The notes below the pieces were generated by a model. It did no database searches. It saw only the letters and a list, made by a program, of their open reading frames with translations, and had not been told where the DNA came from. A DNA stretch of 64,000 bases from a virus (Duplodnaviria; Caudoviricetes), in the IMG/VR virus record IMGVR_UViG_3300033752_000023, positions 2,391-66,390 of that record. One strand, given 5' to 3'. The translations under genes and the position numbers were made by a program. This document shows positions 1,274 to 19,938 of this stretch, piece after piece. The stretch's first letter is position 1. Each line of letters opens with the position of its first letter.

Positions 1274-3985
1274 ATGGACCTATTTCTTGACTTAGAAAAG
1301 GGCAGAAAAAGTGTTGGTAGGGTAGATGGGAGCCTTACTGACAAAAAGAAAGATAAACTGCAACTTGTAATAGATCAACTAGGGTTACAGAACTTTGAAA
1401 AAGACCTAGTCACACGTAAGGTTGTAAGGAAATCTTATGAAGACGATTACAAAGACGATGAAATAAAGAAAGCTGACAATAGTCACCTGCCGGAAGGGGC
1501 AGAGAGGTTTGCTTATAAAACACCTACCAACTATGACATCATTTACATTCCAGTTAACAGGCTAAAACAGGTATATCAAACTGATAAGGCTCTGGACCCT
1601 AAGAAAGTCAATGAAAACATGAGAAAGATAAAAGAAGGTATCCCTCTGGACCCTATAGTAATTGGGTACAACTATGATGTCCATGACGGTCACCATAGGT
1701 GGGAAGCGGCTAAGAAATTAGGTCACACCCATGTACCATGTAGGGTAGTAGGTGCAGACCCAGACAAGGTAATGGAATCTAAGAAGAAATACAGAGAAGT
1801 GTGGAAATCAATGTCTACTGATGTAGATGACTGGGACTCTAAATCTTTAGTCCATGTACTAGACTTACAGAAAGCTATGCTCAACAAAGGAAAGTTAGTC
1901 AAACGTAGGGTTGCAGTTAGAGGTAAAAACGGTAAAGTATTCTACCGTATGCAATGGGTAAGACCTGATGCAAAGGCACCTAACATAGAGCACCCTGGGG
2001 TAGACCATAGTACCTATCACCATCATGAAGAAGGTATTAAGGAAATGGAGCGTAGGCAATCTAACCGTTTCCCAGTACTACATCATGATGCTAATAAGCT
2101 CAAATTCATTGAGCATAACTATAGAACTGATAAGCAAAAATACACTGAAGCGGAAAGAAAGTTCAATGCTGGGGAAAAGTTACCGCCAGTTAAGATAAAT
2201 CCTAAAGGTGAAGTACTAGACAATCATCACTTAGTCGACTTGGCAAGAAACAAGGGTTTGACACATGTTCCTGTTATCGTAATGGGTAACCCAACCCTAA
2301 AGAAACAGCTAGAGGACAAACTCAAGGATGAGGTAACTGTAAAGGACGAAGAAACTGGACAACACATACCTGCTGCCCTAGCAGATGATGATAACGTGAA
2401 AAATTCTAATGCTGGTTTATCAGCTGATATAGTTGATGATTTAGAACACTTCAATAACTTCACTAAGAAGAAATACACCAAACAGCACCTTATGAATGAA
2501 GCTAGGCGTCAAGGTATCACATGGAATGATAAGAAGAATGATGGTACACCCCTACCAGAAAACTCTGCTATCCTGTGGATGAGGGCTCATCAGGCAATTG
2601 TTGACCACATAAAATCTGGTAAGAAGTTTGAGGTACGACATGATGAGAAAGACGTTGATAAGAGAATGCAACAGGATGGTAAGGATTCTATACACAAGCA
2701 CTTCTTGAGGCTATTGGAAAAACATGGAAGTAAAGACGCATTGATGGAATGGGCTAGAAACAACGGTATAAAGTGGAAAGAGAAGGAAGATCCTACTATC
2801 AACTGGATGTATGCAGTTAAAGCTATTAAGCAGGAACTTGCTAAAGGTAGAATGCTAAGTGGTGTACGTACACGTCAGAAAAAGGCTATGGAAGAAGCTA
2901 ATACTGTAGTAACTGACCAAATTAAGTCTATGGTTACTGCTATAGGTAAGAAATATGGTAAATCCCAAGTAATGAAACGTGCTGAACAATTAGGTATCCA
3001 GTTCGATAGGTTCACTAAGAAGGGTGAACAACTCCCAGAGAACTCTAACATCCTATGGATGCGTGCACATGAAGCTATATCGAAATATATCGCTAAGGGT
3101 AACGAGTTTAAGATGGGCGATGAACAAGACACCGGAATCGTATCTACAGTCGGTGACTATGGTGAAGTAAAAGTCACTAAGAATCAGTCTATAGCACTTG
3201 ACAGGGCGAAGCGGAACAGCCAAAATAAAGAACCAAAGATGAAGAAATGGGCTCTCAAGGCACTCATGGTAGACCGAGGTATAAACCAAGAGCAGGCAGA
3301 GGAATTGTATAATCAATTCATGGAAAAAGCTAGAAATGCTAAGATAATGATACACTTTGACCCATTTGAAAAGCTACCAAATGGAGTAAATCTCATAGAT
3401 CAACTTAGCTCAGATGGCGTGTTTAAAAACGACTATGAGCTAAATCGTGGATTTGAACCAGAGCATAGAGAAATTAATGAGAGAGATCTATTTGGTGATG
3501 AGTATGATGAAGCTTCTCACAAAGAGCGTCCTAACTATGGTGTAATAGACCTATATAACCTGGGTCTAGCTTCAAACCCATTAGGCGGAGATGTAGCTTT
3601 TGTACTCAAAGATGAGGTCAAAAAGCGTGCTACAGGTTCTGCTATAGATTCCAATAGCATTCCTTATGGTGAGTCAGGTCAATGGGTACGTTCATTAGAA
3701 GACCCGCATCACCTAATCATAGATAGATGGCGTTCAAGATGGAAAAACGTAAACAAAAAAGACGGACAACGGATACGTGCTATGGATGCTGTACTTCAAG
3801 GTAAACCAAACAAGGATGACAACAAATATTTTGAATCACACATACATGGTGGCGTTAACTTTGCACGTGACGTTGACCATATCTTAGTCCCTCAGTCCTG
3901 GAAATCTGATAAAGCCCATAAAGAGAAACATGAAGCCATTAAGAACTTTGCTAAACAGTTTGGATTACAGGTTAAATATGATTAA
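1274..3985 (+). CDS. Modular 903-aa protein: ParB/Srx-like domain, shared KGK-QWV module, degenerate second ParB-like domain, three helical repeats, C-terminal DUF3626-like domain
   Basis: PIVIG..DVHDGHHRWEAAKKLG..HVP (ParB-like); PPVKI..VLDNHHL..GLTHVPV; RPNYG..FVLKDEV..RAT..DS and YFESHIHGGV..RDVDHI resemble DUF3626; RBS GGAGG upstream. Confidence 0.75.
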   Translation: MDLFLDLEKGRKSVGRVDGSLTDKKKDKLQLVIDQLGLQNFEKDLVTRKVVRKSYEDDYKDDEIKKADNSHLPEGAERFAYKTPTNYDIIYIPVNRLKQVYQTDKALDPKKVNENMRKIKEGIPLDPIVIGYNYDVHDGHHRWEAAKKLGHTHVPCRVVGADPDKVMESKKKYREVWKSMSTDVDDWDSKSLVHVLDLQKAMLNKGKLVKRRVAVRGKNGKVFYRMQWVRPDAKAPNIEHPGVDHSTYHHHEEGIKEMERRQSNRFPVLHHDANKLKFIEHNYRTDKQKYTEAERKFNAGEKLPPVKINPKGEVLDNHHLVDLARNKGLTHVPVIVMGNPTLKKQLEDKLKDEVTVKDEETGQHIPAALADDDNVKNSNAGLSADIVDDLEHFNNFTKKKYTKQHLMNEARRQGITWNDKKNDGTPLPENSAILWMRAHQAIVDHIKSGKKFEVRHDEKDVDKRMQQDGKDSIHKHFLRLLEKHGSKDALMEWARNNGIKWKEKEDPTINWMYAVKAIKQELAKGRMLSGVRTRQKKAMEEANTVVTDQIKSMVTAIGKKYGKSQVMKRAEQLGIQFDRFTKKGEQLPENSNILWMRAHEAISKYIAKGNEFKMGDEQDTGIVSTVGDYGEVKVTKNQSIALDRAKRNSQNKEPKMKKWALKALMVDRGINQEQAEELYNQFMEKARNAKIMIHFDPFEKLPNGVNLIDQLSSDGVFKNDYELNRGFEPEHREINERDLFGDEYDEASHKERPNYGVIDLYNLGLASNPLGGDVAFVLKDEVKKRATGSAIDSNSIPYGESGQWVRSLEDPHHLIIDRWRSRWKNVNKKDGQRIRAMDAVLQGKPNKDDNKYFESHIHGGVNFARDVDHILVPQSWKSDKAHKEKHEAIKNFAKQFGLQVKYD

Positions 3986-4068
3986 ATGTGAAGGTAGTCA
4001 GTCTACTGGCGGTGGTCTGACTGCTGAAGATATAAGCAAAGACATAAAAAAGGACTAGAGGTGATTAG

Positions 4069-4341
4069 ATGTCAAGAATGTATGTAAAAGCTATTAAACT
4101 AACAGATGACCCCCATTCTATTAAAGTTGCATATGAGAAAAATGGGAAGTTATATGTCAGAAGTGGGAACGATAAATTCAGCAAGGGAATATCAGTCCCT
4201 GTACCCCTTTCTACATTGTATACAATATGGGGGTTCCGTAAAGTAACAGATGCACCATATTTCTATGATGGTCAAGAGATGTGGGAGAATATACAAAGAT
4301 TCCAGATGACTAGGGATGGTACAGTCAAATATTTCAGTTAA
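4069..4341 (+). CDS. Hypothetical protein, 90 aa
   Basis: RBS GAGGTG just before the ATG; followed by a terminator hairpin. Confidence 0.7.
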   Translation: MSRMYVKAIKLTDDPHSIKVAYEKNGKLYVRSGNDKFSKGISVPVPLSTLYTIWGFRKVTDAPYFYDGQEMWENIQRFQMTRDGTVKYFS

Positions 4342-4347
4342 TGGTAC

Positions 4348-4380
4348 AGAGGAGTGAGTTTGATTCACTCCTCTTTTTTT
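4348..4380 (+). terminator. Intrinsic terminator
   Basis: AGAGGAGTGA/TCACTCCTCT 10-bp stem followed by a T-run. Confidence 0.8.
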
Positions 4381-4410
4381 ATGGTAAAAACAAGGTCGGG
4401 AGGGTTACCT

Positions 4411-5100
4411 ATGAGAACTAAAACTGTAGGGTTTTATCTGGAAAGAATGAATATACCATCTCATAAGAGAAACAATGAGGAGTTGTTTGAAAAACTAGAT
4501 AGTGCTAATAGTGACGAAGAGCGTCACCACATAGTAGAGAACATACTGATGAATAACATCAAGCTGGTATTTCATATCCTCAATAAACGATTCCCAGATA
4601 TAACTGGTCTATGTCAAAAAATCAGAGTTACTTATGATGATGTATTTAGTGTTGGAGTATATGGATTATTGAAATCTATATACACTTTTAATAGCTCCAA
4701 AAATATCAAATTCTCCACCTATGCTAGTAGAGTAATCAACAATGAGCTAGGAATATTTATGCGTAAGCACAGAAGGTCCCTAATGGTAACTAGCATAGAA
4801 GAAACTATATATGAAGATAAGCAGGGGAGAGAAGGCATAACACTAATGGATGTACTAATAGGTAGTGCTGATGGTATAGAACAGTACATTACTGAAGAAT
4901 ATAATGTATTTTTCCTAGAAGAGCTTGAAAGAGCCCTTACCCCTAAGGAAATAAATATGCTAAGGCTGTATTTTTATGGAAGGATGACTCAAAAACAAAT
5001 AGCAGATGCTATGGATATGAATCAGAGCTATGTTAGTAGGAAACTAAAGACAATACTACGGAAAGCTAAAAAACTTCATAAGAAGTTGCAGGATATGTAG
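4411..5100 (+). CDS. Sigma-70 family RNA polymerase sigma factor, SigE/SigK (sporulation)-like
   Basis: Region 2 NIKLVFHI..DDVFSVGVYGLLKSIYTFN..KFSTYASRVINNEL and region 4 MTQKQIADAMDMNQSYVSR. The ATG at 4411 follows GGAGGG; the ORF track start at 4354 lies inside the terminator. Confidence 0.9.
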   Translation: MRTKTVGFYLERMNIPSHKRNNEELFEKLDSANSDEERHHIVENILMNNIKLVFHILNKRFPDITGLCQKIRVTYDDVFSVGVYGLLKSIYTFNSSKNIKFSTYASRVINNELGIFMRKHRRSLMVTSIEETIYEDKQGREGITLMDVLIGSADGIEQYITEEYNVFFLEELERALTPKEINMLRLYFYGRMTQKQIADAMDMNQSYVSRKLKTILRKAKKLHKKLQDM

Positions 5101-5166
5101 CGGGGAGAACAATTTTCATTCCCCGCATTTCATTTACAACGAAGTCACTAATGGGAGGAGTTTTCT

Positions 5167-5529
5167 ATGTTAAATTGGGTAAAAGCTAATTACAGTAGTG
5201 ACCAGGTACAAAGCAAAGCAATCATTACAACTCTTGACTACTGCAACACTATTGGCAGGTACCATGTTTATCAAATAATAAACGGTCAGTATGTTGTAAT
5301 CTTTGATGACCAAAGAGAGCTATTGAACTATGTGAATCTAAATTTAGGGTCAATATTCATAGTGCGTTTTCTGCACGAAGACAATAACAAATACAGCTAT
5401 ACCGTAGAGCTGTACGGAAGAGAAGTTACTGTACTGACCCTGGCTAGAGCAGTGGTGTTGGTGCAAGGTAGCGAAGAAGAACCTAGAAAGATGTATCTCA
5501 GCGATGAGGAACTCATAACAATAGAGTAA
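5167..5529 (+). CDS. Hypothetical protein, 120 aa
   Basis: GGAGG RBS; complete ORF. Confidence 0.7.
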   Translation: MLNWVKANYSSDQVQSKAIITTLDYCNTIGRYHVYQIINGQYVVIFDDQRELLNYVNLNLGSIFIVRFLHEDNNKYSYTVELYGREVTVLTLARAVVLVQGSEEEPRKMYLSDEELITIE

Positions 5530-5576
5530 TGTTGTCACCCCCTAGATTTTATTAACTAGGGGGTGAATTTTTAGAT

Positions 5577-6059
5577 ATGAACGGAAGAGTACATTATGAA
5601 GTTCTAAGGAATTCCCTGCATCGGGACGATATATTAGAGCATGCTAAGGCAAATGGTGTTTCCTGGGAAGAGCATAGCCACCCAGGTATTAACTGGATGA
5701 GGGCTAGTTCTGCAATTATTAAACATATAGACAAAGGTAACAAGTTCCATACTGATGGTATTGACCTTGAAACTGGCAAGAAAATGCTAGACCATTATAT
5801 TCAGTTACGTGAAGCCCATAAGAAAACAATGATACCTCATATACGGTCAGCTGTGGCTAAACTGCACGCAGAGAAAGGTGACTCTAACACAAGCCCTATG
5901 GACTTGCTGGAGGAAGCCCATGAGCACCTAAAGGCTAATGGTGGTCATGTGTGGGCAGAAAAACTATCAACCCTACACCATATCAATATGCAGATAAAAA
6001 AACTATCTGATAGGATAGATAAAATGTCTAAAGCACAATCTAAGACACAGTCCGTGTGA
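5577..6059 (+). CDS. 160-aa protein with one copy of the helical G[IV]xW..INWMRA repeat found in the modular proteins
   Basis: EHAKANGVSWEEHSHPGINWMRASSAIIKHIDKGNKF aligns with the repeats in ORF 1274-3985. Confidence 0.75.
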   Translation: MNGRVHYEVLRNSLHRDDILEHAKANGVSWEEHSHPGINWMRASSAIIKHIDKGNKFHTDGIDLETGKKMLDHYIQLREAHKKTMIPHIRSAVAKLHAEKGDSNTSPMDLLEEAHEHLKANGGHVWAEKLSTLHHINMQIKKLSDRIDKMSKAQSKTQSV

Positions 6060-6097
6060 AAACACGGACTATACTATTCTTTATATGAAGAAACCGC

Positions 6098-6126
6098 TTG
6101 ACAAAACAGCTGAGGCATGAGAAAAT
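6098..6126 (+). promoter_or_regulatory. Host sigma-A-type (early) promoter
   Basis: TTGACA-17 bp-GAAAAT with an extended -10 TG; same layout as the promoter at 52618. Confidence 0.6.
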
Positions 6127-6159
6127 CAAGTCAGTACCAGAGAAGGAGGAAGAGAAGGT

Positions 6160-7095
6160 ATGAGTAGAAAGTCCCAGGTGGATAAGTTTTACCAAAAATG
6201 GTACAAGCATCAGGAAGATACCAGAGCCATCATAGAAGGACAAATGCGTAAGGAAAAGGAAAAAGAAGCTAAATGGTATGGAGATGTGGAAGGAGTGGAG
6301 GAATTGATGGAAAAGGGGAACATTAAGGAAGCCGCTGTAGTGTTCAGCCGGGAAGGAATGGAAGTGTTTACAAAATTATTTATCAACTCTGTAGAGAGAA
6401 GCGTAGAGGAAACCCTCATGAAAGGCATCACTGACCTCGAAAACAAAATATCAGAACTCATAGAAAAATCCGTAGAGAAAAAACTGGTTGAGATGATGGA
6501 AGGCATAACTGAGGGTATTAAGCAGTTTACTAACGAAAACATGGATAATCACATTAAAATATCACTTCCTACCATTCGTGACACTACAATTCCTGATGAC
6601 CCACTAACAGGAGAAAAACAAAACGAGAGACTGGCAAATTTAGCAGATTCAAATTTATCTGACATAATAATTGATAAGATTATAGTTGATAAGATTGGTC
6701 AAGAGGCAGATAAAAAAGTTACACAACAAATGGTAGAAGAAGGTATAACAAAAACAGTGGAGGAAATAAAATCTGATACAGAAACTTCTAAAGTAGAGAA
6801 AAAACCCAACAAAAAAGCTGATAAGCCTTCTTATACTGAAGAAGGAATACGTATTATTACAACAAAAGATGCAGGAGAAGTACTGCCATTAGTTATTAAC
6901 ATCATGAAAGCCAATGGTGGACCTATGAAACTTGTTGATATTAATAATAAACTAGTTGAACTCTATAATATGAAATTTACTTCATCTGGGTGTACATCGT
7001 TTATGAACAAAATAATCAAATTAGATTATAATATAGAAAAAGTTGGTTATGGTTTATATGAATACCGGGAGAAAAATTTCAAGCCAACGATTTAA
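6160..7095 (+). CDS. 311-aa protein with N-terminal coiled coil and C-terminal winged helix resembling Bacillus Rok
   Basis: C-terminal INIMKANGGPMKLVDINNKL..TSFMNKIIKL..IEKVGYGLY matches my recollection of the Rok pattern TTFMQSLIKM..VKKPYRGQY. Confidence 0.55.
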   Translation: MSRKSQVDKFYQKWYKHQEDTRAIIEGQMRKEKEKEAKWYGDVEGVEELMEKGNIKEAAVVFSREGMEVFTKLFINSVERSVEETLMKGITDLENKISELIEKSVEKKLVEMMEGITEGIKQFTNENMDNHIKISLPTIRDTTIPDDPLTGEKQNERLANLADSNLSDIIIDKIIVDKIGQEADKKVTQQMVEEGITKTVEEIKSDTETSKVEKKPNKKADKPSYTEEGIRIITTKDAGEVLPLVINIMKANGGPMKLVDINNKLVELYNMKFTSSGCTSFMNKIIKLDYNIEKVGYGLYEYREKNFKPTI

Positions 7096-7098
7096 TTT

Positions 7099-7370
7099 TA
7101 GATAGAAGGTTGGAGTTGAGCGACTACAACTGTATCCCCTAATCCGTTAGCTGTAAGGGGCTAGATTAAATGTCTAGTCCCTGACTCTCTTATCTTTCTT
7201 AGACCCATACATGCCCACGTCACTGTCTCGGACCGCTTTAGGTCCGAGACATACGATAACCCAGGGTGCACACTGGGCTTGGGATAGTTGCGCAACCATG
7301 TGTGGGTCTAACAAAGATAAGATAGCAGGGTGGATGCTGTCACATAGACCGTCTGCTCTATTATCTACCT
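7099..7370 (+). ncRNA. Putative structured non-coding RNA (~270 nt) directly 5' of tRNA-Arg; family not recognised
   Basis: Long-range stem 7189-7213/7297-7321 (9+15 bp), perfect 11-bp hairpin 7224-7251, hairpins 7157-7181 and 7260-7277; richer in GC than its flanks. Confidence 0.55.
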
Positions 7371-7448: not shown

Positions 7449-7494
7449 TCTATTCCCCTATTCTATATCCTGAGCCATACAAAAATATCTCTCC

Positions 7495-7902: not shown

Positions 7903-7993
7903 AACTTTAAGACCTTAATATACTAAAATGTACTAAACTTTAAGACCTTAATATATTAAAATATACTAAACTTTAAGACCTTAATATACTAAA
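7903..7993. repeat. 33-bp AT-rich tandem repeat, about 2.75 copies (iteron-like)
   Basis: AACTTTAAGACCTTAATATA[C/T]TAAAAT[G/A]TACTA at 7903 and 7936, with a 25-bp partial copy at 7969. Confidence 0.9.
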
Positions 7994-8040
7994 GAGTGAA
8001 AATTTGCGCATTGAATTTTAATTTTTATACTAAAGTTTTT

Positions 8041-8167: not shown

Positions 8168-9097
8168 GTGGTATCCATGATTAAGCACTGGCAACACGTA
8201 GAGTATATTACTCAGGAAGATTACGATAAGTTTGCAAAATATAATATTCCTATAACTCCTAAAGAAGCTGGCTTACATTATAATACCGCAGTGTATATTG
8301 AATGTATTAATAGTGGTAAAAGGCTTGAAGGTATATATGACCCAGATATGAAAGGAATACGCAAACTAAACTTGAAAGGCAAAACTGCCAGCAATAGGGA
8401 TTTAAGACTATATTTAGATGCTATTCATAATCCTAAAATTACTATGATTGCTGTTGATGGTCTTATGGGAACAGGTAAGACTTCTACAGCTATAGAAGAA
8501 GTAATAAATCAGCATTTAATAAATGTCAAAATACCGGCTTTCATAGGTGAAGGTTATAAGCCAGACCCAGATGCTCACAAGATAATAATAGCAAAGCCAT
8601 ATATAAATGCTGGCGGTAAATATGAACAGTATGGATTCTTACCTGGTGACATAGATGATAAAATGGATCCAACCCTTTCCAACTTTATACAGTATTTTGA
8701 TAGATTCCATCCGGCAGGCTTTAATAATCTAAGAGAAGCGGGATACGTAGAGATTAAGCCACTAGGATTTATACGTGGACTAGATGCTAAAAACATGACT
8801 ATCATAGCAGATGAGACTCAAAATACTACAGAGTTAATATCACTGGCTACAAGGAAAGCCGAGAATTGTAGAATATTTTTCTTAGGGGACACAAGTCCCT
8901 TCCAAATTGACCTACCAGGAAATACACCTAAGAAGAACGGTCTGCGCCACATTATAGACCTGTTGCAAGGTGCCCCATACTTTCAGTATATTGAAATGAA
9001 GACCCTGGAACACATCGTTCGTAGCGATGAGGTAAGGGATATAGTACGTAGACTGTTCAAGAAGTATGGGCAAGACCCTCAAGAATGGGTAGTTTGA
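8168..9097 (+). CDS. phoH: PhoH-family ATPase
   Basis: GLMGTGKT P-loop, GFLPGDIDDKMDP, FIRG..IIADETQN, GD..QIDL. Confidence 0.9.
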   Translation: MVSMIKHWQHVEYITQEDYDKFAKYNIPITPKEAGLHYNTAVYIECINSGKRLEGIYDPDMKGIRKLNLKGKTASNRDLRLYLDAIHNPKITMIAVDGLMGTGKTSTAIEEVINQHLINVKIPAFIGEGYKPDPDAHKIIIAKPYINAGGKYEQYGFLPGDIDDKMDPTLSNFIQYFDRFHPAGFNNLREAGYVEIKPLGFIRGLDAKNMTIIADETQNTTELISLATRKAENCRIFFLGDTSPFQIDLPGNTPKKNGLRHIIDLLQGAPYFQYIEMKTLEHIVRSDEVRDIVRRLFKKYGQDPQEWVV

Positions 9098-10246: not shown

Positions 10247-13200
10247 ATGTTCAAGTTTACTGAAGAACAAATAGCGAAATATCGTGACATTACTCCACCA
10301 TTTGGTATGATTGGTTCTACAACCTATAAGAGGACATATTCAAGACCTATCTATGATGAAAACGGTAAGATGGTAAATAGAGAATCATGGTTGGATACTA
10401 TTGTACGTGTTATTGAAGGTAATGTTAATTTAGGTATAGAGAATGGTGATCCTACTGCAACGCCAGAGTGGGCAGAAGAAGCCTTGGAATATATGTTTTA
10501 CATGGGTGTTATGCCACCTGGACGTGGATATTGGATGATGGGAACGGAGTACGCTTATCAACGTGGTGGAGATGCTTTAAACAACTGCTGGTACGTAGCT
10601 ATTCGCCCGCAAAGCTACGAGGATATTGAAATGTTCAAGGACCAACCATATATTTTCTCTGATCCATGGAAAGAGATGCCTTCGTATCCATTTGTATTTA
10701 TGTTTGACCGGGCTATGTTGGGTGGAGGAGTAGGATTCGGTGCCAGTCGTAAGAATCTTAAATTAATGCCTAAGGTTACTACTGAAGTTGATCTTAAAAT
10801 CTTTCTACACCCTAATCATCCAGACTGGGAACGTATTATGGCTAGTGAGGAATGGGGTCGTATTAAAGATTATATTACAACGGACACAAATATTGCCCAG
10901 AAAGCCAAAGAAGAAGGTACTTACTATTTTACTACAGACAACCGTGAGGGTTGGAATATTTCTGTACGTGAAACTATTGATGGTCATTTTGTGAAGACTA
11001 AGCTAGATAAAAATAAGGTTACCCTGGTGGTTGACTTATCACGTATCAGACCATATGGGGCACCGATTAAAGGATTCGGTGGTACTGCTAGTGGTCCACT
11101 TCCACTTATTTCAGCCTTAGTGGAGATTAACAGAATACTTAATGCTCGTGTAGGTAAACGTATCACAAGTGAAGATACATTAGACATCATGAACTTGTTA
11201 GGGCGTTGTGTAGTTGCAGGTAATGTGAGACGTACTGCTCTTATTGCCTTGGGTGACGCTGATGACCCAGATTATGTTAATGCTAAGAACTACAAACTCG
11301 TTGAGCCAATTATGGAAAAAGATGAAAATGGTTACACTATCTGGGAAACTAATAAGTGGGGTCGGATGACACAAAAACGTAAGAGTTTTGATATAGTAGT
11401 GCAGGAACTATTAGACAAAAAATTATCTGAATTCTACAAGGACGGTAGAACTCCATCAGATGAACAATTAGCTGAGTTGAAAGCCAAAGCAGAGGAAGAA
11501 GCTAATTACCTATTTGAATTAGCTTGGAAGCAGGAGAACCATAGATGGGCTTCTAACAATTCTGTATATACTTACGAGATGTTTAAGGACCATCACTTCA
11601 TTGCCGCAGGTATTATTGCTAATGGTGAGCCAGGAGTAGGTAATGAGTGGTTAATGAAGAACTTTGGTCGTATTATGGACGGTTTTCAAGAAGCAATAGA
11701 TCGAGATGCAGAAGGGCTTAATCCTTGTTTTAGGGGCGACATGAGACTTCTAACAGTTGATGGGTATAAAACGTTTGAAGAGTTGGAAGGAACAGAACCA
11801 CTCATTATCAATAAGGATGGAGTTGTAGTTAAGGGTAAGGTCTGGTGCTCTGGGGTAAAAGATATTGTGGAGGTTAAGTTCCTTAATCGAGATAGTATTT
11901 TTGTTACTCCAGACCATGTGTTTATGTTGAATGATGGTACTGAGTGTCAGGCTAAGGACTTGAAAGGTAAGCGTATTATGCCATTCCTTACTGAAAACTA
12001 TAATCACGAGGATGAGTTTGTAAAACTTGGCTTTATTTTGGGGGATGGCTCATTCCGTATAACCAAAGGACATTTTGATGGTGTAGATGTAAATATAGGA
12101 AAAAAGGATACTGACGTGTGTGAAATGTTTGGTAGTCCTAAGCTTCAGTCTAGTGGTAGGGTTTTCTTCACTTCAGAGTTTAATGACCTGATTGAGCAAG
12201 TAGGTGTTGATACAGTACCTGTATACAATAGGTCATTGCCTTCTACTTATAGTGATTGGACAGACAGTCAGAAGCTAGGATTTTTACGTGGTTTGTATTC
12301 AGCTAATGGTAGTGTTTTAAATAACGGTCGTGTAACTTACAAGACTACTAGTGAGCAATTGGCATACCAATTAGTAGAGGCTTTGAGCGAGTTTGGTATT
12401 CATGCTTATGTGACATCTAACAGTCCTACAGACATTGCATGGCATAATGGCACGTACACATCAGCTCAAAGTTATGATGTAAATATACAAAGGTATGAAT
12501 CTCGGCTTGAGTTCTACAGACTAATTGGGTTTGTACAGCAATATAAGCAAAATAAACTTAGAACTACTCTAATTGAAACAGCTCCTATGGTTTGTAATGT
12601 AATTGAGCGTGGACAAGAGAAAGTGTATGACTTTACTGAACCTCTAACCCATTGGGGGGTAGTTGAGGGGGTTATAGCTCATAACTGCGCAGAAATCACA
12701 TTATGGAACTGTGAGCCTTGTAACCTAGTTGAATTTGTACCATACATGTGCATGAAGTCTGGCTTAGACTTCAAGAAGGCTTTACGTATTGCCACACAAT
12801 ACGCATATCGTATTACATTTGCTAAATACATCTGGAAAGCAACTGCTAGGGTAATAGCTCAGAACAGACGTATCGGTGTATCATTAACAGGTATGCAAGA
12901 CTACTTCCTTACTAAATATGGTCACTATGCAGTAAAAGGATTCGAGATTGACCCTGAGACAGGTAAAGAAGACATTACAAAGCCAATTTTTTACCAAGAG
13001 ATTGTAGATGAGTTAGATGAATGGTATAGCTACGTAAGGGAAGTTAACATGGAGCATGCTAGATTGATGGGTGATAATCCATCTATCAAGGTTACTACAG
13101 TTAAACCATCTGGTACAGTTGCTAAATTGCCTGGTGTATCATCTGGAATTCATTGGCACTATTCACCTTATATAATTCAGCGTATCCGATTCCATGAAAC

Positions 13201-13681
13201 AGACCCTAACTTGAAGGTACTGGAAGCATGTGGATTCCCTATTGAGAAGGCTGCTAAGGAACCTAATACAATGGTAGTGGAATTCCCTATCAAGAATCCT
13301 AACGCAGACCATCCTAACTTCTTGGGTGCTGGTGACATTCCATTAGAAGTGCAGTTTGCTAACCAATACTTATTTGCATATGCTTGGGCTGACAATGCGG
13401 TATCAGCAACATTGACATTCAAATATGAGGAAGTGGACAAAATCGAGCCGCTGTTGAAGGCTTACAACAACCGTATTAAGTCCACATCGCTGTTACCATA
13501 TAGTGGTCACGGATATGTTCAAGCTCCTTGGGAACCTATAACTAAAGAGGAATATGAAAGACGTGCAGCACAACTGAAGGCTACTCCAGAGGAAATGTAT
13601 GAACTTATACCACTGGTAACGGAAGCTGACGAAGAAATATTAGATCCAGACTGCTTAGGTGGTGCTTGCCCAGTTAAATAA
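10247..13681 (+). CDS. nrdJ: Class II (adenosylcobalamin-dependent) ribonucleotide reductase containing an intein
   Basis: PPGRG, ALNNC, VVAGNVRR, RWASNNS, NP|CAEI active site, RRIGVS, TTVKPSGT, C-terminal C..GACP. Confidence 0.93.
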   Translation: MFKFTEEQIAKYRDITPPFGMIGSTTYKRTYSRPIYDENGKMVNRESWLDTIVRVIEGNVNLGIENGDPTATPEWAEEALEYMFYMGVMPPGRGYWMMGTEYAYQRGGDALNNCWYVAIRPQSYEDIEMFKDQPYIFSDPWKEMPSYPFVFMFDRAMLGGGVGFGASRKNLKLMPKVTTEVDLKIFLHPNHPDWERIMASEEWGRIKDYITTDTNIAQKAKEEGTYYFTTDNREGWNISVRETIDGHFVKTKLDKNKVTLVVDLSRIRPYGAPIKGFGGTASGPLPLISALVEINRILNARVGKRITSEDTLDIMNLLGRCVVAGNVRRTALIALGDADDPDYVNAKNYKLVEPIMEKDENGYTIWETNKWGRMTQKRKSFDIVVQELLDKKLSEFYKDGRTPSDEQLAELKAKAEEEANYLFELAWKQENHRWASNNSVYTYEMFKDHHFIAAGIIANGEPGVGNEWLMKNFGRIMDGFQEAIDRDAEGLNPCFRGDMRLLTVDGYKTFEELEGTEPLIINKDGVVVKGKVWCSGVKDIVEVKFLNRDSIFVTPDHVFMLNDGTECQAKDLKGKRIMPFLTENYNHEDEFVKLGFILGDGSFRITKGHFDGVDVNIGKKDTDVCEMFGSPKLQSSGRVFFTSEFNDLIEQVGVDTVPVYNRSLPSTYSDWTDSQKLGFLRGLYSANGSVLNNGRVTYKTTSEQLAYQLVEALSEFGIHAYVTSNSPTDIAWHNGTYTSAQSYDVNIQRYESRLEFYRLIGFVQQYKQNKLRTTLIETAPMVCNVIERGQEKVYDFTEPLTHWGVVEGVIAHNCAEITLWNCEPCNLVEFVPYMCMKSGLDFKKALRIATQYAYRITFAKYIWKATARVIAQNRRIGVSLTGMQDYFLTKYGHYAVKGFEIDPETGKEDITKPIFYQEIVDELDEWYSYVREVNMEHARLMGDNPSIKVTTVKPSGTVAKLPGVSSGIHWHYSPYIIQRIRFHETDPNLKVLEACGFPIEKAAKEPNTMVVEFPIKNPNADHPNFLGAGDIPLEVQFANQYLFAYAWADNAVSATLTFKYEEVDKIEPLLKAYNNRIKSTSLLPYSGHGYVQAPWEPITKEEYERRAAQLKATPEEMYELIPLVTEADEEILDPDCLGGACPVK
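11726..12685 (+). mobile_element. Intein (320 aa) with LAGLIDADG endonuclease, inserted immediately before the RNR catalytic Cys
   Basis: EGLNP|CFRGDMRLLT...GVIAHN|CAEI; LGFILGDGS and FLRGLYSANGS motifs. Confidence 0.93.
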
Positions 13682-13939: not shown

Positions 13940-13944
13940 CCTTT

Positions 13945-14106
13945 ATGGAGGAGAAACAGGAAATAAGGTTTCCATATGCTACAGATATGGAAGAGAGAAG
14001 GAAAAAAGCATTGGAGAAGGCTATAGAGCATGAGAAATCGTTTATAAAAGCCAATACAGATGATGGTCTGTTTAAGAAACGCATGGGCTCTGATTTATTT
14101 AAGTAG
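13945..14106 (+). CDS. 53-aa protein not in the ORF track (MEEKQEIRFP...GSDLFK)
   Basis: GGGAGGTG RBS, ATG at 13945, TAG at 14104-14106; fills the gap between its neighbours. Confidence 0.65.
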   Translation: MEEKQEIRFPYATDMEERRKKALEKAIEHEKSFIKANTDDGLFKKRMGSDLFK

Positions 14107-14109
14107 GAG

Positions 14110-14334
14110 GTGGAAGCAATGAGTTATACATTTTTACGCTGGAATGGGCAATATGGTCATGACGCTAAGTTTGTTGTACAGGACAATAGCACAGGTCAAC
14201 AAGCTATATTTACTCCAGGTCGTACACAGGACCTAGTTTGGACTACAACTAAGCTAGATGAAACCCCAGAGATTTCTAAGTGGTCAGATTTTGGTAATGA
14301 AACAGTACATGATTTAGATGAAGTTGCCTTCTAA
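14110..14334 (+). CDS. Hypothetical protein (probable start ATG 14119)
   Basis: AGGAGG RBS before 14119; followed by a hairpin terminator. Confidence 0.65.
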   Translation: MEAMSYTFLRWNGQYGHDAKFVVQDNSTGQQAIFTPGRTQDLVWTTTKLDETPEISKWSDFGNETVHDLDEVAF

Positions 14335-14347
14335 TGAATACAGATAT

Positions 14348-14380
14348 AATTGCACCCTACTAATGGGTGCAATTTTTATT
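14348..14380 (+). terminator. Intrinsic terminator
   Basis: AATTGCACCC/GGGTGCAATT stem plus a T-rich tail. Confidence 0.75.
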
Positions 14381-14412
14381 ATCAGACATGAAAAGAGCGG
14401 GAGGTGTAAACT

Positions 14413-15762
14413 ATGGAATTGTATATTGATTTAGGTAAAGCTTTTAATACAGCTCGATTAGTTAAGAAACCAGTACAAGTGCATGGTAAGAATGGTAAAA
14501 TATTTACTCGTATGCAATGGGTTTACCCTGCGACTGATGAAGTTGTGTTTGAAGAGCCAGGGGGTAGGCATGATGAATACCATAATAGATTAAAAAAGAT
14601 GAGCGATGAAGAGAAAAGGTTTGCTCTGCAACAACTCTATAAGAATAAACCAGATAAGGTACGATTATTACTGCATAATTCTGATTTTCATGATCTACAA
14701 ACTGAACATAGCATTATTAATTATTTACATCATCATATCCATAATATACCTCAGCACATGTTAGAGGAATATTTACCTACATTAGACAATAATAGACAGG
14801 AAACTAGCAACATAGATGGTGTTTCTGAACAGGAATCTGAAAAATCTAAGAATAACTTTAAGATTCCAATATCATTAAAACACACAGATCATGGGCTTAC
14901 AAGTAAGGAAGTAAAGAAAAGACATGGTGAAATAGGAGATATAGATTTATCTAAACTTAGAATGGGAACAAAAGTGTCGGATTTTGATGGGGGTAATCTA
15001 GATGGAGATGATAGAAAGGTATTATCTCATATATTTAAAGACATAACAACAGAAGGGTTAGAATATGTATTTAGCCATCCAAAAGGTGAGTTTACTTGTT
15101 CATTCACAGACGTTATGGTATACAATAACGAGGATTACCCAAAGGCAAACATAAATTTTGATATATTAGATAAGGAAGGTAGTACAATAGGATTTGTTAG
15201 TAGGACCTTATGGAGAAATGAAGAAGGTCATTTGTGTGTATATAATGATGAACTATCAATAGATAAAGAGTATACAGGGTCAGGGATGGGTGATGTATTA
15301 TATAAGAGATCTGAACAGTTATGGAGGCATCTATCTGGTGGACATCCAGTAGAAATATCTCTATCAGCTAACATTAGTGTGGGTGTATATGCTTGGGCTA
15401 AGAAAGGTTTTGACTTTAAAATGCCTAATGAGTTACAAAGGACTAAGAATGAATTAGAAAAATTTTGTATAGAGAACAACATAGATTTAGGTAAAGCCCT
15501 CAAGAAAAGTGGATATAACAGTATAGATGATTTAAAACATTCTTGGGATTTTGCTACACTAGATGATGATAAAGAATATGACTTAAATTCTGTAGCTCCA
15601 AAGTACTTTAAGAAGGAGATAAAAGGTACTGGTCATTTAGGTAAAGCCTTTATGTTAGGTGGTAAATCTGAGTGGCTGGGGAAGAAAGTGCTTAATGCTG
15701 ATGATCATACAGAAAAAGTAGGAGATATACATGATGAGTTTAATAAAAGGAGGGTTAAATAA
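14413..15762 (+). CDS. Modular 449-aa protein: N-terminal KGK-QWV module plus C-terminal GNAT-like acetyltransferase
   Basis: MELYIDLGKAFNTARLVKKPVQVHGKNGKIFTRMQWV; acetyl-CoA motif A-like EYTGSGMGDVLY, then LSANISVGVYAWAKKGFDF. Confidence 0.75.
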   Translation: MELYIDLGKAFNTARLVKKPVQVHGKNGKIFTRMQWVYPATDEVVFEEPGGRHDEYHNRLKKMSDEEKRFALQQLYKNKPDKVRLLLHNSDFHDLQTEHSIINYLHHHIHNIPQHMLEEYLPTLDNNRQETSNIDGVSEQESEKSKNNFKIPISLKHTDHGLTSKEVKKRHGEIGDIDLSKLRMGTKVSDFDGGNLDGDDRKVLSHIFKDITTEGLEYVFSHPKGEFTCSFTDVMVYNNEDYPKANINFDILDKEGSTIGFVSRTLWRNEEGHLCVYNDELSIDKEYTGSGMGDVLYKRSEQLWRHLSGGHPVEISLSANISVGVYAWAKKGFDFKMPNELQRTKNELEKFCIENNIDLGKALKKSGYNSIDDLKHSWDFATLDDDKEYDLNSVAPKYFKKEIKGTGHLGKAFMLGGKSEWLGKKVLNADDHTEKVGDIHDEFNKRRVK

Positions 15763-18700
15763 TGGCTAAAAAGCTGAAGAGAACAGTTCCATATAAAGCT
15801 TCTAGTAAGGAAGGTTTATTTAAAGGTAAAGGTGATGCTTGGTTTCATCCAGAGGTTTTTGATGAAGAATATGAGCATAAGACTAATAAAGCTATAAGGA
15901 GGTTTTCTAGAAACAACAGAAAAGTCATATCTAAATGTATGGAATTGTATATTGATCTGGAAAAAGGTAGACTAAACACAGCCAAGTTAGTTAAAAGACC
16001 AGTACAGGTACGTGGTAAGGACGGTAAAATCTATACACGTATGCAGTGGGTAGACCCACATTCTGGAGAGCCAGTTAACAATCAACGTAGCCTTAAGCTA
16101 GAGAATGAAAAGGAACAGCCTAAGTTTAGAAGTCAAAAGGAGTATATTGACCACTATGTTAAAAACTTGTCTAGGGATGAAAAATATCATCTTATAGACA
16201 AACATGGTATTAAATGGGAACGTAACCACCATGAAGCTATAGACCACAAAAATGCTGTTATGGCTCTTAAGGAGCACCTCTATAAGAACCCACATCTAGT
16301 TGGGGTAGAACACCTACCTAAAGAGCCTGATGGTAGTAAGACACCGGAAGGTACAGATAGAATTGATGAGTGGCTAAAGAAATATAAGAATCATCCAGAG
16401 CTCCTATACAGAATGATGCACCATGCAGGTGTTCTTGATGACCCTACTGATCCACGCACAGTACCAGAATGGGGTCCAAAGGATAAAGGTGGTAATGGTA
16501 CAGCCCCTATACGCCACATGAGGAACATGATGACATTTAAAAAGCATCTGAAGGAAAATCCTCACCTAATGGATTTATATGACAGTCATGAGGAATTCGG
16601 TTTACCTAATACTAAAACTGGTTCTAAGTCCCATAAGCCAGAGCCTAAAGTAAAATCTAAGGCTCAAGAGGGTGGAAACACTATCCATGGCATATTGAAA
16701 AATATGAGTTCAGAAGAGCTATATGCTTTGATGAAACGCTTAGGCATAGCAGATAGAGATCCACGAACAGTACCAGAATGGGGTCCAAAGGATAAAGGTG
16801 GTAATGGTACAGCCCCTATCCGACATATGAGAAATATGATGGCTCTTAAGAAAGCTATCGAGCGAGACCCTTCTATCCTTAATTTAGACGAAAACGGTGA
16901 TTTGAGCGAACAGGAGAAAGAACGTTTGGCGAGTCTCAGTGGTAAGGAGAAGCTATCACATGATGTAGACGAATTCCTAAAGGGTGTTGACCGAAAATTA
17001 GTGCTTGCATGGGCTGACACATATGATTGGCATGATCATATGAAGAATCGTATTAAGAGTGACCATGAGCACATAGATAATATGCATAAGATTTCAGCTC
17101 TTAAGAAAATCATTATGGACAACCCTCATCTTATGGAAGAGGGTCCTATGAAGGAAGAATTTGATACAGACAGACTATTAAAAACTAAGATCAAGAACAA
17201 GGAAATGCAGAAAATATTACGTGAAGTAGTTGGATTGAAGGGTGTAGGAGACGTTAAGCAGGCAGAAAAAGGCGTAGAGTGGTCATTTGGGGTAGCTTCA
17301 TTTGCACGTATAGATAAAGACCAAGATGGTAAGGCAGTTTTATCAGTAGTAGATGCTGGTAAGGATGGAAGTGGATGGGATGAATACGTTTTCCCTATGG
17401 AAGATGTGGTTAAATACTTAGAAAAGATACGCAATGGTAAACAAGCGAAATTAAAGTCTAAAGAAGTACCTCTGCATAAGAAATCTCCTGCGGAGATGTG
17501 GAAAGCCATAGAAGAAGATTTTGATAAGAATTATACTCATGAAGTTGGGGAAGAGCTGAAAGATGAAATAGGAATGCTATATAGAACTCATGGATTTGAT
17601 AATGTAGATGCTTTCTTGAAGGAGTTACCTGTAAAGGTGTCTGGTGACACATTTAGAAAATTACTAGACAAATATGGAGTTTTATATAATCATTCTCAGA
17701 TTTACACTGATGGCGAAGCCTGGAAAGAAGTAGTATATAAAAGTCTTGTCGAAAAGACTAAGACTAAAAATGCTTCTGAATACCTAGTAATTAAGCCGGG
17801 CACAGATGAAGTAGATACATGGGTTCTACATCAATCAGCTAAGCATTGGAGCCCAGAGGAGCGTGCACAGGCTCGTAAGGAATTGATTCATAGACAAGTC
17901 CATATAGAAGATGAAGATGGTTTTGAGGACAAGGAGCATAGACGTGTCAAATTAGTAGACCACATACACCAGGCTTTAGAGTTCGTACCGTTTGATTTGA
18001 TGACAGATGTGCTGTGTTCTGGTAAGGGAGTTAAGCTGAAGTTTATGAAAACAGGAGAAGATGGTGGGGAACATTATGGTAACTATTTTGGGTATAGAGT
18101 AGATGGTCCTGTCATATATTTTGACCATAGGTATGTAAAGGATGACTCTGTATTAAAGGCATCTCACCCATTAGACCATACACCTAAACCTAGGTTGCTT
18201 GGTATAAGTAGAAAGCTCATATATTCAGCATTTGCTGATACCTGTGCTCATGAATTTGCCCATGCTATAGACCATTTCCTATCTGGTAGTATAGGGACAT
18301 ACTTAACCTGGGACAATCCTATAGGCAGGAAATATGCTGAAGGTCACACTGATGCAGTTATTAGGTCTTATAAGGCTTCCGTAGAGCGTTCAAATCCTAA
18401 GAAATACTTAGGCGCAGCTAGAAATGGTAACACTAGGTATTTCTGGCATTTGGATGAATGGATTTCAAGTTATGAGGGTCGTATCTATAATAGAAGGTAC
18501 ACTGACCCATCCCTTATGGATAATTATATAGGTCGAGATGAGAATGGTCAATTGTTAGATAAGGCATGGGACACAGAAACAGATGAACGTGGGTTAGAAC
18601 ATTGGAGTGAGAATACATCCAGGTATGCAAATGCTTTCCATGCTTATAGGAGATGGAGGGAAGAGACAGGAAATACTAGTACATCTATGGATTCCTGGGC

Positions 18701-18998
18701 TAGACAGATGTATGAGAAGTTCATGGACATGGGGTATGGTGATGACTCTAATAAGCAAATTGACGGTAAACTTCTTGCTAGGTATACAGCCGGTATAAGG
18801 ACCAACCCAATAGAGGGATATGGGTACTTATGGCATAGGATGAAACAAGTACACCCAGAGTTGCATGGGTCACTAAATGCAATCTTTGGTAGGGGTGACT
18901 TTGTGGATAAAGACGATGTAGCAAATAGAAAAGAGTTGTTTGAAAGAGGGGATTATACTCGTAAGTCTGAAGAACCGAAATTGATTATTGAATTGTAG
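15762..18998 (+). CDS. Modular 1078-aa protein: KGK-QWV module, helical repeats, C-terminal HExxH zincin-like metallopeptidase
   Basis: MELYIDLEKGRLNTAKLVKRPVQVRGKDGKIYTRMQWV from aa 60; CAHEFAHAIDH at 18243-18272; downstream EHWSE. Confidence 0.75.
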   Translation: MAKKLKRTVPYKASSKEGLFKGKGDAWFHPEVFDEEYEHKTNKAIRRFSRNNRKVISKCMELYIDLEKGRLNTAKLVKRPVQVRGKDGKIYTRMQWVDPHSGEPVNNQRSLKLENEKEQPKFRSQKEYIDHYVKNLSRDEKYHLIDKHGIKWERNHHEAIDHKNAVMALKEHLYKNPHLVGVEHLPKEPDGSKTPEGTDRIDEWLKKYKNHPELLYRMMHHAGVLDDPTDPRTVPEWGPKDKGGNGTAPIRHMRNMMTFKKHLKENPHLMDLYDSHEEFGLPNTKTGSKSHKPEPKVKSKAQEGGNTIHGILKNMSSEELYALMKRLGIADRDPRTVPEWGPKDKGGNGTAPIRHMRNMMALKKAIERDPSILNLDENGDLSEQEKERLASLSGKEKLSHDVDEFLKGVDRKLVLAWADTYDWHDHMKNRIKSDHEHIDNMHKISALKKIIMDNPHLMEEGPMKEEFDTDRLLKTKIKNKEMQKILREVVGLKGVGDVKQAEKGVEWSFGVASFARIDKDQDGKAVLSVVDAGKDGSGWDEYVFPMEDVVKYLEKIRNGKQAKLKSKEVPLHKKSPAEMWKAIEEDFDKNYTHEVGEELKDEIGMLYRTHGFDNVDAFLKELPVKVSGDTFRKLLDKYGVLYNHSQIYTDGEAWKEVVYKSLVEKTKTKNASEYLVIKPGTDEVDTWVLHQSAKHWSPEERAQARKELIHRQVHIEDEDGFEDKEHRRVKLVDHIHQALEFVPFDLMTDVLCSGKGVKLKFMKTGEDGGEHYGNYFGYRVDGPVIYFDHRYVKDDSVLKASHPLDHTPKPRLLGISRKLIYSAFADTCAHEFAHAIDHFLSGSIGTYLTWDNPIGRKYAEGHTDAVIRSYKASVERSNPKKYLGAARNGNTRYFWHLDEWISSYEGRIYNRRYTDPSLMDNYIGRDENGQLLDKAWDTETDERGLEHWSENTSRYANAFHAYRRWREETGNTSTSMDSWARQMYEKFMDMGYGDDSNKQIDGKLLARYTAGIRTNPIEGYGYLWHRMKQVHPELHGSLNAIFGRGDFVDKDDVANRKELFERGDYTRKSEEPKLIIEL
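16449..16830 (+). repeat. Intragenic duplication encoding DPRTVPEWGPKDKGGNGTAPIRHMRNMM twice
   Basis: 53 identical bp at 16458-16510 and 16767-16819, 309 bp apart. Confidence 0.95.
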
Positions 18999-19009
18999 GG
19001 GGTTAGAAT

Positions 19010-19402
19010 ATGAAGGTATCCATCCACCACCAAGGTGTGAGTGGATGGGTTACCTATGACCCTTTAAATAAGGAGGTCATGGTATCCCATCCAAATGAAC
19101 TAGTACGTAAAGCAGTTAGGCATTATCTTAACAATGAGCAAAAGTTTGACATACCTTTGAGCCACAACATAGGTCATAAGGGCACTATACTAGAGAAACC
19201 CACTAAAGACAAGATGTACATGTTGATGGCTTTATCACAGATGTATCATCAGACAGGTGTCCATGTAGATTGGGGTCATTCTGAGAACGCAGGTCCATAT
19301 AAATATGACAAGGTGCTTGACACCCAGGACCCTAATGCTAGGGCTGATAAGCCAATAGTCAAGTCATTATTTGGTGATGAAGATTACGAAATTATTAATT
19401 AA
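19010..19402 (+). CDS. Hypothetical protein, 130 aa
   Basis: GGGG RBS; directly follows the metallopeptidase gene. Confidence 0.75.
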   Translation: MKVSIHHQGVSGWVTYDPLNKEVMVSHPNELVRKAVRHYLNNEQKFDIPLSHNIGHKGTILEKPTKDKMYMLMALSQMYHQTGVHVDWGHSENAGPYKYDKVLDTQDPNARADKPIVKSLFGDEDYEIIN

Positions 19403-19413
19403 GGGGTGTTACT

Positions 19414-19938
19414 ATGAAAAAAGAGCCATTATTGCTTATATCAGAGGACTTAGGTTCTTTACAAAAGGGTATGGAAGCAGACCTTTTTAAAGGTAAAGGT
19501 AATCGTGATGGGTTGATACAGCAAATTATAACCTATATACGTAACGGTCACGTAGTTACACGTAAGCAGTGGGTACGTAGTGAATTTGCTGACCATGCTA
19601 AGAAGAATGAAGAAGAGAAGAAACAGGCTATGCTTAGGGAGCAGGAACGTGAAAGGGAAAAACATAACAAGGAAATAGGTGAGCATAATATTAAGGCTAG
19701 ACATCAAGATGAACATGCTAGGAGAAAACAGAAGAAACGAGAACAAGAGGAACTAGGTATAAAAGGGCGTAACAGACATATAGTTGATAAAGAGCTAAAT
19801 GAGTATAAGAAGAAGCTAGAGAGACAGCGTAAGAAGGAAGAACAAGAACGTAAAAAGCAAGAGAAAAGGGATAAGGAGAAGCAGAGAAAAGCTAAGAAAG
19901 AAGAAGCTAAACATGCTAGGTATGGTCAGTCTGACTAA
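19414..19938 (+). CDS. 174-aa protein: divergent KGK-QWV module plus highly charged K/E/R coiled coil
   Basis: DLFKGKGNRDGLIQQIITYIRNGHVVTRKQWV followed by a basic/acidic low-complexity helix. Confidence 0.7.
   Translation: MKKEPLLLISEDLGSLQKGMEADLFKGKGNRDGLIQQIITYIRNGHVVTRKQWVRSEFADHAKKNEEEKKQAMLREQEREREKHNKEIGEHNIKARHQDEHARRKQKKREQEELGIKGRNRHIVDKELNEYKKKLERQRKKEEQERKKQEKRDKEKQRKAKKEEAKHARYGQSD

Follow-up and report, generated by a model that had tools for sequence, protein, structure and literature searches.

The window analysed here is a stretch of 64,000 nucleotides of the IMG/VR virus record IMGVR_UViG_3300033752_000023 and corresponds to that side of the genome which serves head morphogenesis in an SPO1-like, Bacillus-type myophage (Herelleviridae, Spounavirinae). 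Four of its proteins, designated carriers A to D and encoded between the terminase and portal genes, share a module that consists of a short leader and a basic hairpin. With a confidence slightly above even, we propose that this module serves SPO1-like phages (Spounavirinae) as an N-terminal head-delivery tag in two parts. The first would be a short hydrophobic/acidic leader (e.g. M-E-L-Y-I-D-L-x-K) ending in a site for the prohead protease of the phage itself, predicted as hydrophobic-x-K with a cut before A, G or S. The second, a strongly basic hairpin (K-L-V-K-R-x-V-x-V-x-G-K-x-G-K-x-F-T-R-M/K-Q-W-V), would be retained on the mature protein.

In this proposal the tagged proteins would be produced together with the head genes, enter the procapsid and be clipped at the K site, which would also set free fused parts, for instance the ParB head in A or the stretch of 59 aa that extends C. 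The cargo would stay with the DNA, probably because the basic hairpin binds DNA or, earlier, the acidic scaffold. When the phage infects, the cargo would exit together with the DNA and act on the host. Exchangeable enzymes would make up this cargo: ParB/DUF3626, GNAT and a lethal-factor-like zincin in the window, and a PARP-type ADP-ribosyltransferase, a Zeta-toxin kinase and topoisomerase IB in relatives. The small charged protein D (SPO1 gp5.3) would be the conserved core member. The data themselves give the module, its predicted fold and distribution, the variety of payloads, the head-gene linkage and the site statistics; encapsidation, cleavage of the carriers, the binding partner of the hairpin and ejection are what we infer.

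Anatomy and distribution of the shared module

A first-pass annotation of the window had reported the same module on four open reading frames (ORFs). All four translations proved identical to those it quoted, and the identity of the first 18 bp of the copies at 14413 and 15939 was confirmed. The length of about 35 residues was too short, since the unit really comprises about 45 aa (leader strand, invariant K-[AGS], hairpin and often D-P). The copy in C had been regarded as N-terminal from 15939, but C starts at 15762 with a good ribosome binding site, whereas the ATG at 15939 has none. The module of C is therefore internal (aa 60-97). To the four copies, all of which stood, a further leader-only copy at the start of A has to be added. 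The carriers and their modules are listed below; slashes within motifs mark predicted cleavage positions.

1274..3985, + strand: carrier A, 903 aa (ORF list; Pfam ParB_N and DUF3626; phrog_26588)
1274..1303, + strand: leader-only copy MDLFLDLEKG at the N-terminus of A (sequence)
1856..1960, + strand: module copy in A, aa 195-229, holding LDLQK/A and preceded by SK/S
14413..15762, + strand: carrier B, 449 aa (AlphaFold2 model; Foldseek GNAT matches)
14413..14523, + strand: module copy in B, aa 1-37, with hairpin strands at aa 17-24 and 30-37
15762..18998, + strand: carrier C, 1078 aa (ORF list; AlphaFold2 model of the C-terminal domain)
15939..16052, + strand: internal module copy in C, aa 60-97, Met and full leader retained (sequence)
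18249-18263, + strand: HEFAH in the predicted zincin domain of C
19414..19938, + strand: carrier D, 174 aa, orthologue of SPO1 gp5.3, directly before the portal gene
19480..19575, + strand: divergent module copy in D (pairwise and profile comparison)

Carriers A and B aligned at E=6e-13 across 66 aa (BLASTP) with no further significant segment, and the match between C and D (E=0.006) was confined to the module. The divergence ascribed to the D copy was borne out: a profile built without any D-type row matched SPO1 gp5.3 at E=1.6e-7 and window D at E=0.007, the latter as its top-ranked non-member. Many third codon positions differ among the DNA copies of the module, which places the conservation at the protein level. 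This bears on the possibility that the common N-terminus is a functionless remnant of gene duplication or a translation-start cassette. The 18 identical nucleotides that open the modules of B and C would fit such an origin, but the differing third positions speak against it, as do the retention of the module at internal positions where no start is used and a protein-level conservation that reaches across 301 clusters of less than 50% identity and keeps K, L, G, R, Q and W invariant. We consider a functionless remnant very unlikely.

When 22 non-identical copies, taken from the window and from related IMG/VR phages, were aligned, the leader-strand consensus was x-L-x-I-D-I-x-K-A, followed by 2-10 variable residues and the hairpin consensus L-N-x-G-K-L-V-K-R-x-V-Q-V-K-G-K-x-G-K-x-F-T-R-M-Q-W-V-x-P. 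The invariant residues named above derive from this alignment. The leader strand ends in h-x-K-[AGS] and the hairpin in TR(M/K)QWV. The basic beta-hairpin suggested in the first-pass annotation was also predicted by AlphaFold2. In a model of B built with 36 homologues (mean predicted local distance difference test score, pLDDT, 83.8), residues 1-11 with the leader MELYIDLGK were disordered, while residues 17-24 and 30-37 formed the two hairpin strands. A short third strand (44-47), a helical linker, a disordered spacer and a confident C-terminal domain followed. Among 173 copies the net charge of the hairpin ranged from +1 to +9 with a mean of +5.3, and the leader was slightly acidic.

As had been presumed, the module does not correspond to a named domain in Pfam, NCBIfam or PDB sequence searches. 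The excised module had no Pfam-A match at E<=1, NCBIfam and ESM Atlas searches gave no match, the best PDB profile match had an E-value of 0.8, and a word-index search with the module region gave no further result. Newer precomputed Pfam matches on the carriers (PF26856, PARP and others) fall in the payloads, none on the hairpin. PF26856 (Phage_SPO1_gp51) was considered as an identity of the hairpin and rejected; it matches a separate helical repeat. PHROGs group the whole carrier proteins under 'unknown function'.

A profile search of the kind proposed at the outset returned many architectures adjoining terminase and portal, as predicted. Searched against 1.84 billion cluster representatives, the 22-row module profile matched 301 clusters at E<=1e-3 and 125 at E<=1e-10. 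The proteins were 66-1502 aa long and almost all metagenomic, from contigs of up to about 146 kb. The module began within the first 15 residues in 96 of 184 copies, at aa 16-80 in 65 and further inside in 23; in full-length proteins none of these copies was C-terminal. Coverage-based clustering of 178 proteins distinguished at least 54 carrier architectures. Single-linkage clustering of the payloads was dropped, as common repeats merged everything.

The window record encodes four carriers, EalM-132 and the complete CP-51-like genomes five each, and SPO1 one (gp5.3). The fifth CP-51-like carrier (about 650 aa) lies beside the terminase, and its C-terminus is paralogous to the payload of B. The carriers of JL are gp32, gp68, gp86, gp87 and gp89. 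Metagenomic relatives carry up to five between terminase and portal. Among 50,697 phage records, tblastn detected the module in only five isolates (EalM-132, S4-1, CP-51, Shanette and JL), to which the profile search adds SPO1 with gp5.3. A second, large subfamily is known from metagenomes only. It has the longer leader M-x-N-F-I-N-x-G-x-D-x-x-I-L-K-S ... E-D-L-x-K-A-M-N and the hairpin G-L-V-Q-K-E-V-Q-V-K-G-K-N-G-Q-x-F-T-R-K-Q-W-V. This leader opens much as the capsid propeptide does (SPO1 and the window: M-N-F-x-N-G-V-N-G-F-G; 116-kb phage G007: D-Y-V-D-F-G-Q-G), a likeness that is suggestive only.

The claimed linkage to head genes held in the window as well as in relatives. The order terminase, carriers, portal-protease-scaffold-capsid recurs in the window, EalM-132, JL, SPO1, a 41-kb metagenome scaffold (terminase, five carriers, portal-protease-scaffold) and a complete 116-kb phage. 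Gene A abuts the terminase gene, beginning 12 nt past its stop codon, JL gp32 overlaps the terminase gene, and in SPO1 the gene immediately before portal gp3.1 is gp5.3. Terminator-like hairpins at 14348-14374, 19991-20018 and 24811-24843 frame B-C-E-D, directly upstream of the portal-to-capsid unit. The surrounding features are the following.

2-1261: terminase large subunit
14348..14374, + strand: terminator-like hairpin ending the upstream unit, with B-C-E-D behind it as a separate block
19010..19402, + strand: gene E between C and D, 130 aa, phrog_26403, no module
19991..20018, + strand: terminator-like hairpin at the D / portal operon boundary
20093..21676, + strand: portal protein (Pfam Phage_portal)
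21737..22525, + strand: prohead protease (S78), [LIVM]xK[SAG] 8 vs 1.4 expected
22540..23346, + strand: scaffold protein with hyper-acidic N-terminal half, [LIVM]xK[SAG] 11 vs 1.4 expected
23384..23455, + strand: predicted 24-aa propeptide of the capsid protein ending LLNK/A (alignment with phi812-type chain)

The complete order runs terminase, A, sigma factor, Rok-like winged-helix protein, PhoH, 3D-domain protein and an intein-bearing ribonucleotide reductase, followed 3' by B, C, E, D, portal, S78 prohead protease, scaffold and major capsid protein. The source record is a 66-kb IMG/VR contig with an estimated completeness of 46%. Its closest isolate at the DNA level is Exiguobacterium phage vB_EalM-132, and the capsid protein of the window matched SPO1 Gp6.1 (PDB 9vel) at E=6e-255. 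Two further observations concern the genes between A and B. The gene of the ribonucleotide reductase large subunit (10247-13681) is split by an intein with a LAGLIDADG homing-endonuclease domain; the ribonucleotide reductase genes of SPO1 and EalM-132 are shorter. In the long intergenic region upstream of PhoH (7905-8000), a unit of about 34 bp (ACTTTAAGACCTTAATATAYTAAAAT...) occurs three times in tandem at a place where relatives have tRNA genes.

Predicted prohead-protease site in the leader

The L-x-K-[AG] opening of the module had been matched to sites in the scaffold and capsid proteins. Capsid alignment and motif statistics agree with a likely prohead-protease site at this position. Together with a second site upstream of internal modules, they form three independent lines by which the leader likely contains the predicted site. 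For the phi812-type capsid protein, the PDB holds a precursor of 463 aa (5lii_P) and a chain of 439 aa (9row_B) that starts after VVK24. The VVK24/S position of 5lii_P aligns with LLNK24/A (L-L-N-K24/A-L-E-A-G) of the window capsid protein. When 62 ORFs of the window were compared, the scaffold (p=3e-7) and the protease (p=1e-4) were the only ones enriched in [LIVM]-x-K-[SAG]. Both are proteins normally degraded by a prohead protease.

In 61 of 84 cases, an internal module had a second K-[SGA] among the 12 residues that precede its leader, compared with a background of 25% (p=6e-20, not corrected for relatedness). Such an upstream site is present in window A (S-K/S-L-V-H-V-L-D-L-Q-K/A) and window D (L-Q-K/G-M-E-A-D-L-F-K/G); in window C a Cys stands behind the upstream Lys (I-S-K-C), which does not fit the motif. 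Moreover, the internal copy of natural two-module fusions retains its complete leader. Full internal leaders would look like the pattern of a polyprotein-style processing that regenerates an N-terminal module.

Several observations on the neighbouring head proteins touch on processing and targeting. About 30 residues into the portal proteins, (I/V)-D-L-V-K-(G/S) or E-L-V-K-S is found (window 20093-20210; relatives L046, 19070-19200, and L065, 2462-2580), which suggests that the prohead protease may trim the portal at its N-terminus as well. The C-tail of the protease (22262-22357; K-S-L-E-A-G ... L-E-G-G-G-V-F-R-K-E-S-L-D) copies the N-arm of the capsid protein past its predicted maturation site (23444-23527; K-A-L-E-A-G ... 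L-E-G-G-G-A-F-R-V-E-S-L-D), and this capsid-arm-like tail may bring the protease into the procapsid. In the scaffold, a segment of about 70 aa (22621-22824) consists almost entirely of Asp and Glu and is a plausible electrostatic partner of the basic hairpins.

The acidic scaffold and the basic hairpin would also suit a module that docks proteins to the procapsid (scaffold, portal or inner face of the capsid) for a function in assembly or within the capsid only, such as DNA condensation by D/gp5.3 or processing, with no delivery of effectors. D/gp5.3, the sole carrier conserved in SPO1, is small, charged and encoded beside the portal, as this explanation would have it. However, zincin, PARP, Zeta toxin and GNAT domains have no obvious role in a capsid, and the enzyme classes of the payloads are those of known injected or polyvalent proteins. 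Furthermore, SPO1 does without B, C and the enzyme half of A, which is what one would expect of accessory weapons. We rate a role restricted to assembly or the capsid interior as quite unlikely.

Carrier proteins and their proposed delivery

The payloads downstream of the module had been called unrelated. This applies to the ParB/DUF3626, GNAT-fold and zincin-fold parts, which differ, but not to the gp51-like helical repeats that A and C have in common. Carrier A consists, in this order, of the leader-only copy, ParB_N, the module, a second ParB-like region, three gp51-like repeats and DUF3626. SPO1 gp2.12 is a short ParB protein of 207 aa that opens with MDLHIDLNKS and has neither the hairpin nor the rest of A; the module of A is placed where gp2.12 ends.

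In carrier B, the module (aa 1-37) and a helical linker precede a GNAT-fold domain (aa ~164-449). The top Foldseek matches of this domain were all GNATs, with E-values from 4e-4, and a Pfam GNAT match was weak and below the cut-off. Pairwise comparison related it to the C-terminus of a MuF-domain protein (E=8e-12), a distant homologue without the module, so that elsewhere this enzyme is attached to an established head address. The GNAT-like domain also matches phrog_4611, 'minor head protein'. MuF itself (PF04233) gave no match in A-D or in 20 diverse carriers, and Pfam scans of these 20 returned almost nothing besides DUF3626.

Carrier C comprises a 59-aa N-terminal extension with LFK/GKG, the module, four gp51-like repeats and a predicted C-terminal zincin domain. 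Its last 378 residues were modelled by AlphaFold2 with a mean pLDDT of 91. The best VIA-align matches of this domain, which would place it with the lethal-factor/PPEP zincins (MEROPS M34), were the catalytic domain of anthrax lethal factor (Z 9.8, 184 aa, root-mean-square deviation 4.3), PPEP-2 (Z 9.1, 157 aa, root-mean-square deviation 3.3) and a further Pro-Pro endopeptidase match (Z 8.3). The HExxH is invariant in 21 homologues and an E-H-W nearly so. Foldseek matches were weak (E 0.1-0.3), and Pfam gave no match to the domain. In carrier D, the divergent module is followed by a long K/E/R-rich charged tail.

Two or more effector-type domains thus reside on single polypeptides in A (ParB twice, gp51-like repeats, DUF3626) and C (gp51-like repeats, zincin). 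The helical repeats of about 45 aa, three in A (2465-3134) and four in C (16149-17142), resemble the two repeats of SPO1 gp51, an early host-takeover protein. SPO1 gp51 matched A at E=0.003, and precomputed PF26856 matches occur on several metagenomic carriers. Carriers of metagenomic relatives bear PARP, Zeta_toxin and Topoisom_I domains, with SNF2 and GHKL-ATPase genes alongside.

Small genes lie directly 3' of toxin-like carriers, namely E in the window and those at 8777-9040 and 17882-18169 of L046 and at 4782-5066 and 9301-9582 of L044. The metagenomic ones encode Cys-rich proteins of about 90 aa and follow PARP, Zeta-toxin and large carriers. Such genes could be immunity or chaperone partners. 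A ferritin/Dps-like protein of 167 aa (L045, 4786-5289) has the subfamily-2 leader L-N-Q-F-V-x-G-S-x-D-E-N-L-V-K-A and no hairpin; its orthologue in L046 (1755-2255) has no leader. Since SPO1 gp2.12, the very start of A and the L045 ferritin-like protein all have the leader but no adjoining hairpin, the address may be the short leader, a signal similar to the capsid-targeting sequence (CTS) of T4, and the hairpin may have a separate, retained function.

The nature of some payloads also fits a different explanation, in which the hairpin is a nucleic-acid- or host-factor-binding domain of late or middle enzymes that act in the infected cell (partition, topology, modification) and are never packaged, K-[AGS] being part of the fold or binding surface. 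The hairpin is invariably basic, its predicted three-stranded basic sheet is common as a DNA-binding element, and several payloads are DNA enzymes (ParB, topoisomerase IB) or have an SNF2 neighbour. This explanation leaves unaccounted for the strict N-terminal bias, the disordered leader whose site recurs in the capsid propeptide, the scaffold and the protease, the additional site ahead of internal copies and the constant position between terminase and portal. It also fits poorly with payloads of the injected-effector type (PARP, Zeta toxin, zincin, and GNAT found also on MuF). We therefore hold a role confined to the infected cell to be unlikely.

Several points weigh against head delivery. 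Payloads such as ParB, topoisomerase and those of the SNF2 type might just as well take part in DNA transactions within the infected cell. The motif h-x-K-[AGS] is weak, with a chance occurrence of about 0.5 per 100 aa, and the carriers overall are not enriched in it. The mature N-terminus of the phi812-type capsid protein, although likely, was read solely from the length of the deposited chain. Scans with a sigma-70 consensus and with the SPO1 late and middle promoter consensus were uninformative for expression timing, which for the carriers is accordingly taken from gene position alone. Statistics over cluster representatives are phylogenetically non-independent. Finally, phage K, A511 and Bastille gave no match to the module though their head-gene layout is the same, so the module is not required for Herelleviridae head assembly as such.

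Taken as a whole, the material leads us to suggest, tentatively and at somewhat less than an even chance, an undescribed portable cargo-loading system in Spounavirinae and uncultured relatives. The prohead protease would cut a leader of about 9 aa, and the basic hairpin would then tether the cargo to DNA or scaffold. The two parts jointly would allow four to five or more interchangeable enzymes to be loaded per capsid and co-injected, and gene fusions would be resolved at duplicated K-[SGA] sites by a polyprotein-style processing. As part of this same tentative proposal, the candidate cargo set would include an ADP-ribosyltransferase, a Zeta kinase, topoisomerase IB, a GNAT, a lethal-factor-like protease and a ParB nuclease.

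If head delivery is correct, the module gives myophages of Gram-positive hosts an equivalent of the CTS, that is a sequence-recognisable address for head cargo. Hundreds of large phage proteins now called 'hypothetical' would be re-annotated as virion-delivered effectors, and the module would serve as a guide to the anti-host and anti-defence arsenal that SPO1- and CP-51-like phages use in the first minute. The module would also be a natural tag for studying how proteins are selected for encapsidation in HK97-type heads, with SPO1 gp5.3 in B. subtilis as a convenient laboratory entry point.

Comparison with known head-delivery systems

T4, MuF toxins, polyvalent proteins and phiKZ-type ejection proteins already exemplify the principle. 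For the module itself, its bipartite form, its use by four to five genes per genome and its spread in uncultured phages, no description was found in the libraries and literature searched.

The CTS of T4 comprises about 10 aa and directs foreign proteins into the core, where the cargo is then processed by gp21 (PMC9958956). Like the module, the CTS of the internal proteins IPII/IPIII, considered here together with head-packaged Alt, is a short N-terminal signal that occurs on several cargo proteins, and it ends at a prohead-protease site, as the leader is predicted to do (PMC9958956). The T4 cargo is non-essential, enters the prohead core and includes injected anti-host enzymes, features that the carriers would share. 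In contrast, gp21 cuts after Glu, whereas the predicted site in the carriers has Lys before the cut and belongs to a protease of the HK97/S78 type. In addition, a conserved basic hairpin follows the leader here and would remain on the mature cargo. Targeting is demonstrated in T4; for the module it is proposed. Neither Pfam nor PHROG links nor any sequence relation connected A-D with the T4 CTS or internal proteins.

ADP-ribosyltransferases and MuF fusions whose genes neighbour those of terminase and portal are regarded as effectors that are packaged in the head and injected (PMC5512222, PMC9503650). MuF toxins and polyvalent proteins (Iyer et al. 2017, PMC5512222; PMC9503650) resemble the carriers in that a constant head-associated N-terminal part is combined with exchangeable C-terminal enzymes. 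Their effector domains include ADP-ribosyltransferase, GNAT, zincin, Zeta kinase, ParB and SNF2, their genes lie beside portal and terminase, and several domains share one polypeptide, as here. They differ in that the carriers have no MuF domain and that the constant part measures about 45 aa, compared with a domain of about 110 aa or more. Furthermore, the module is spread over four to five separate genes per genome, unlike a single giant protein.

In giant phages of the phiKZ/SPN3US type, diverse head-internal proteins lose propeptides to the prohead protease at one consensus site and are then ejected into the host (PMC7411985, PMC10052503). Protease family and cleavage site are different there, and the abstracts of these reports describe no common basic hairpin module.

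Targeting by a short peptide has a further precedent in HK97 itself. The C-terminal tail of its protease is reportedly capsid-targeting (Duda et al. 2013). The likeness lies in a short portable peptide that brings a protein into the procapsid; the carriers, in contrast, have no such tail, and their signal is N-terminal and unrelated in sequence. As the C-tail of the window protease copies the capsid N-arm, peptide-based targeting appears to operate in this head as well.

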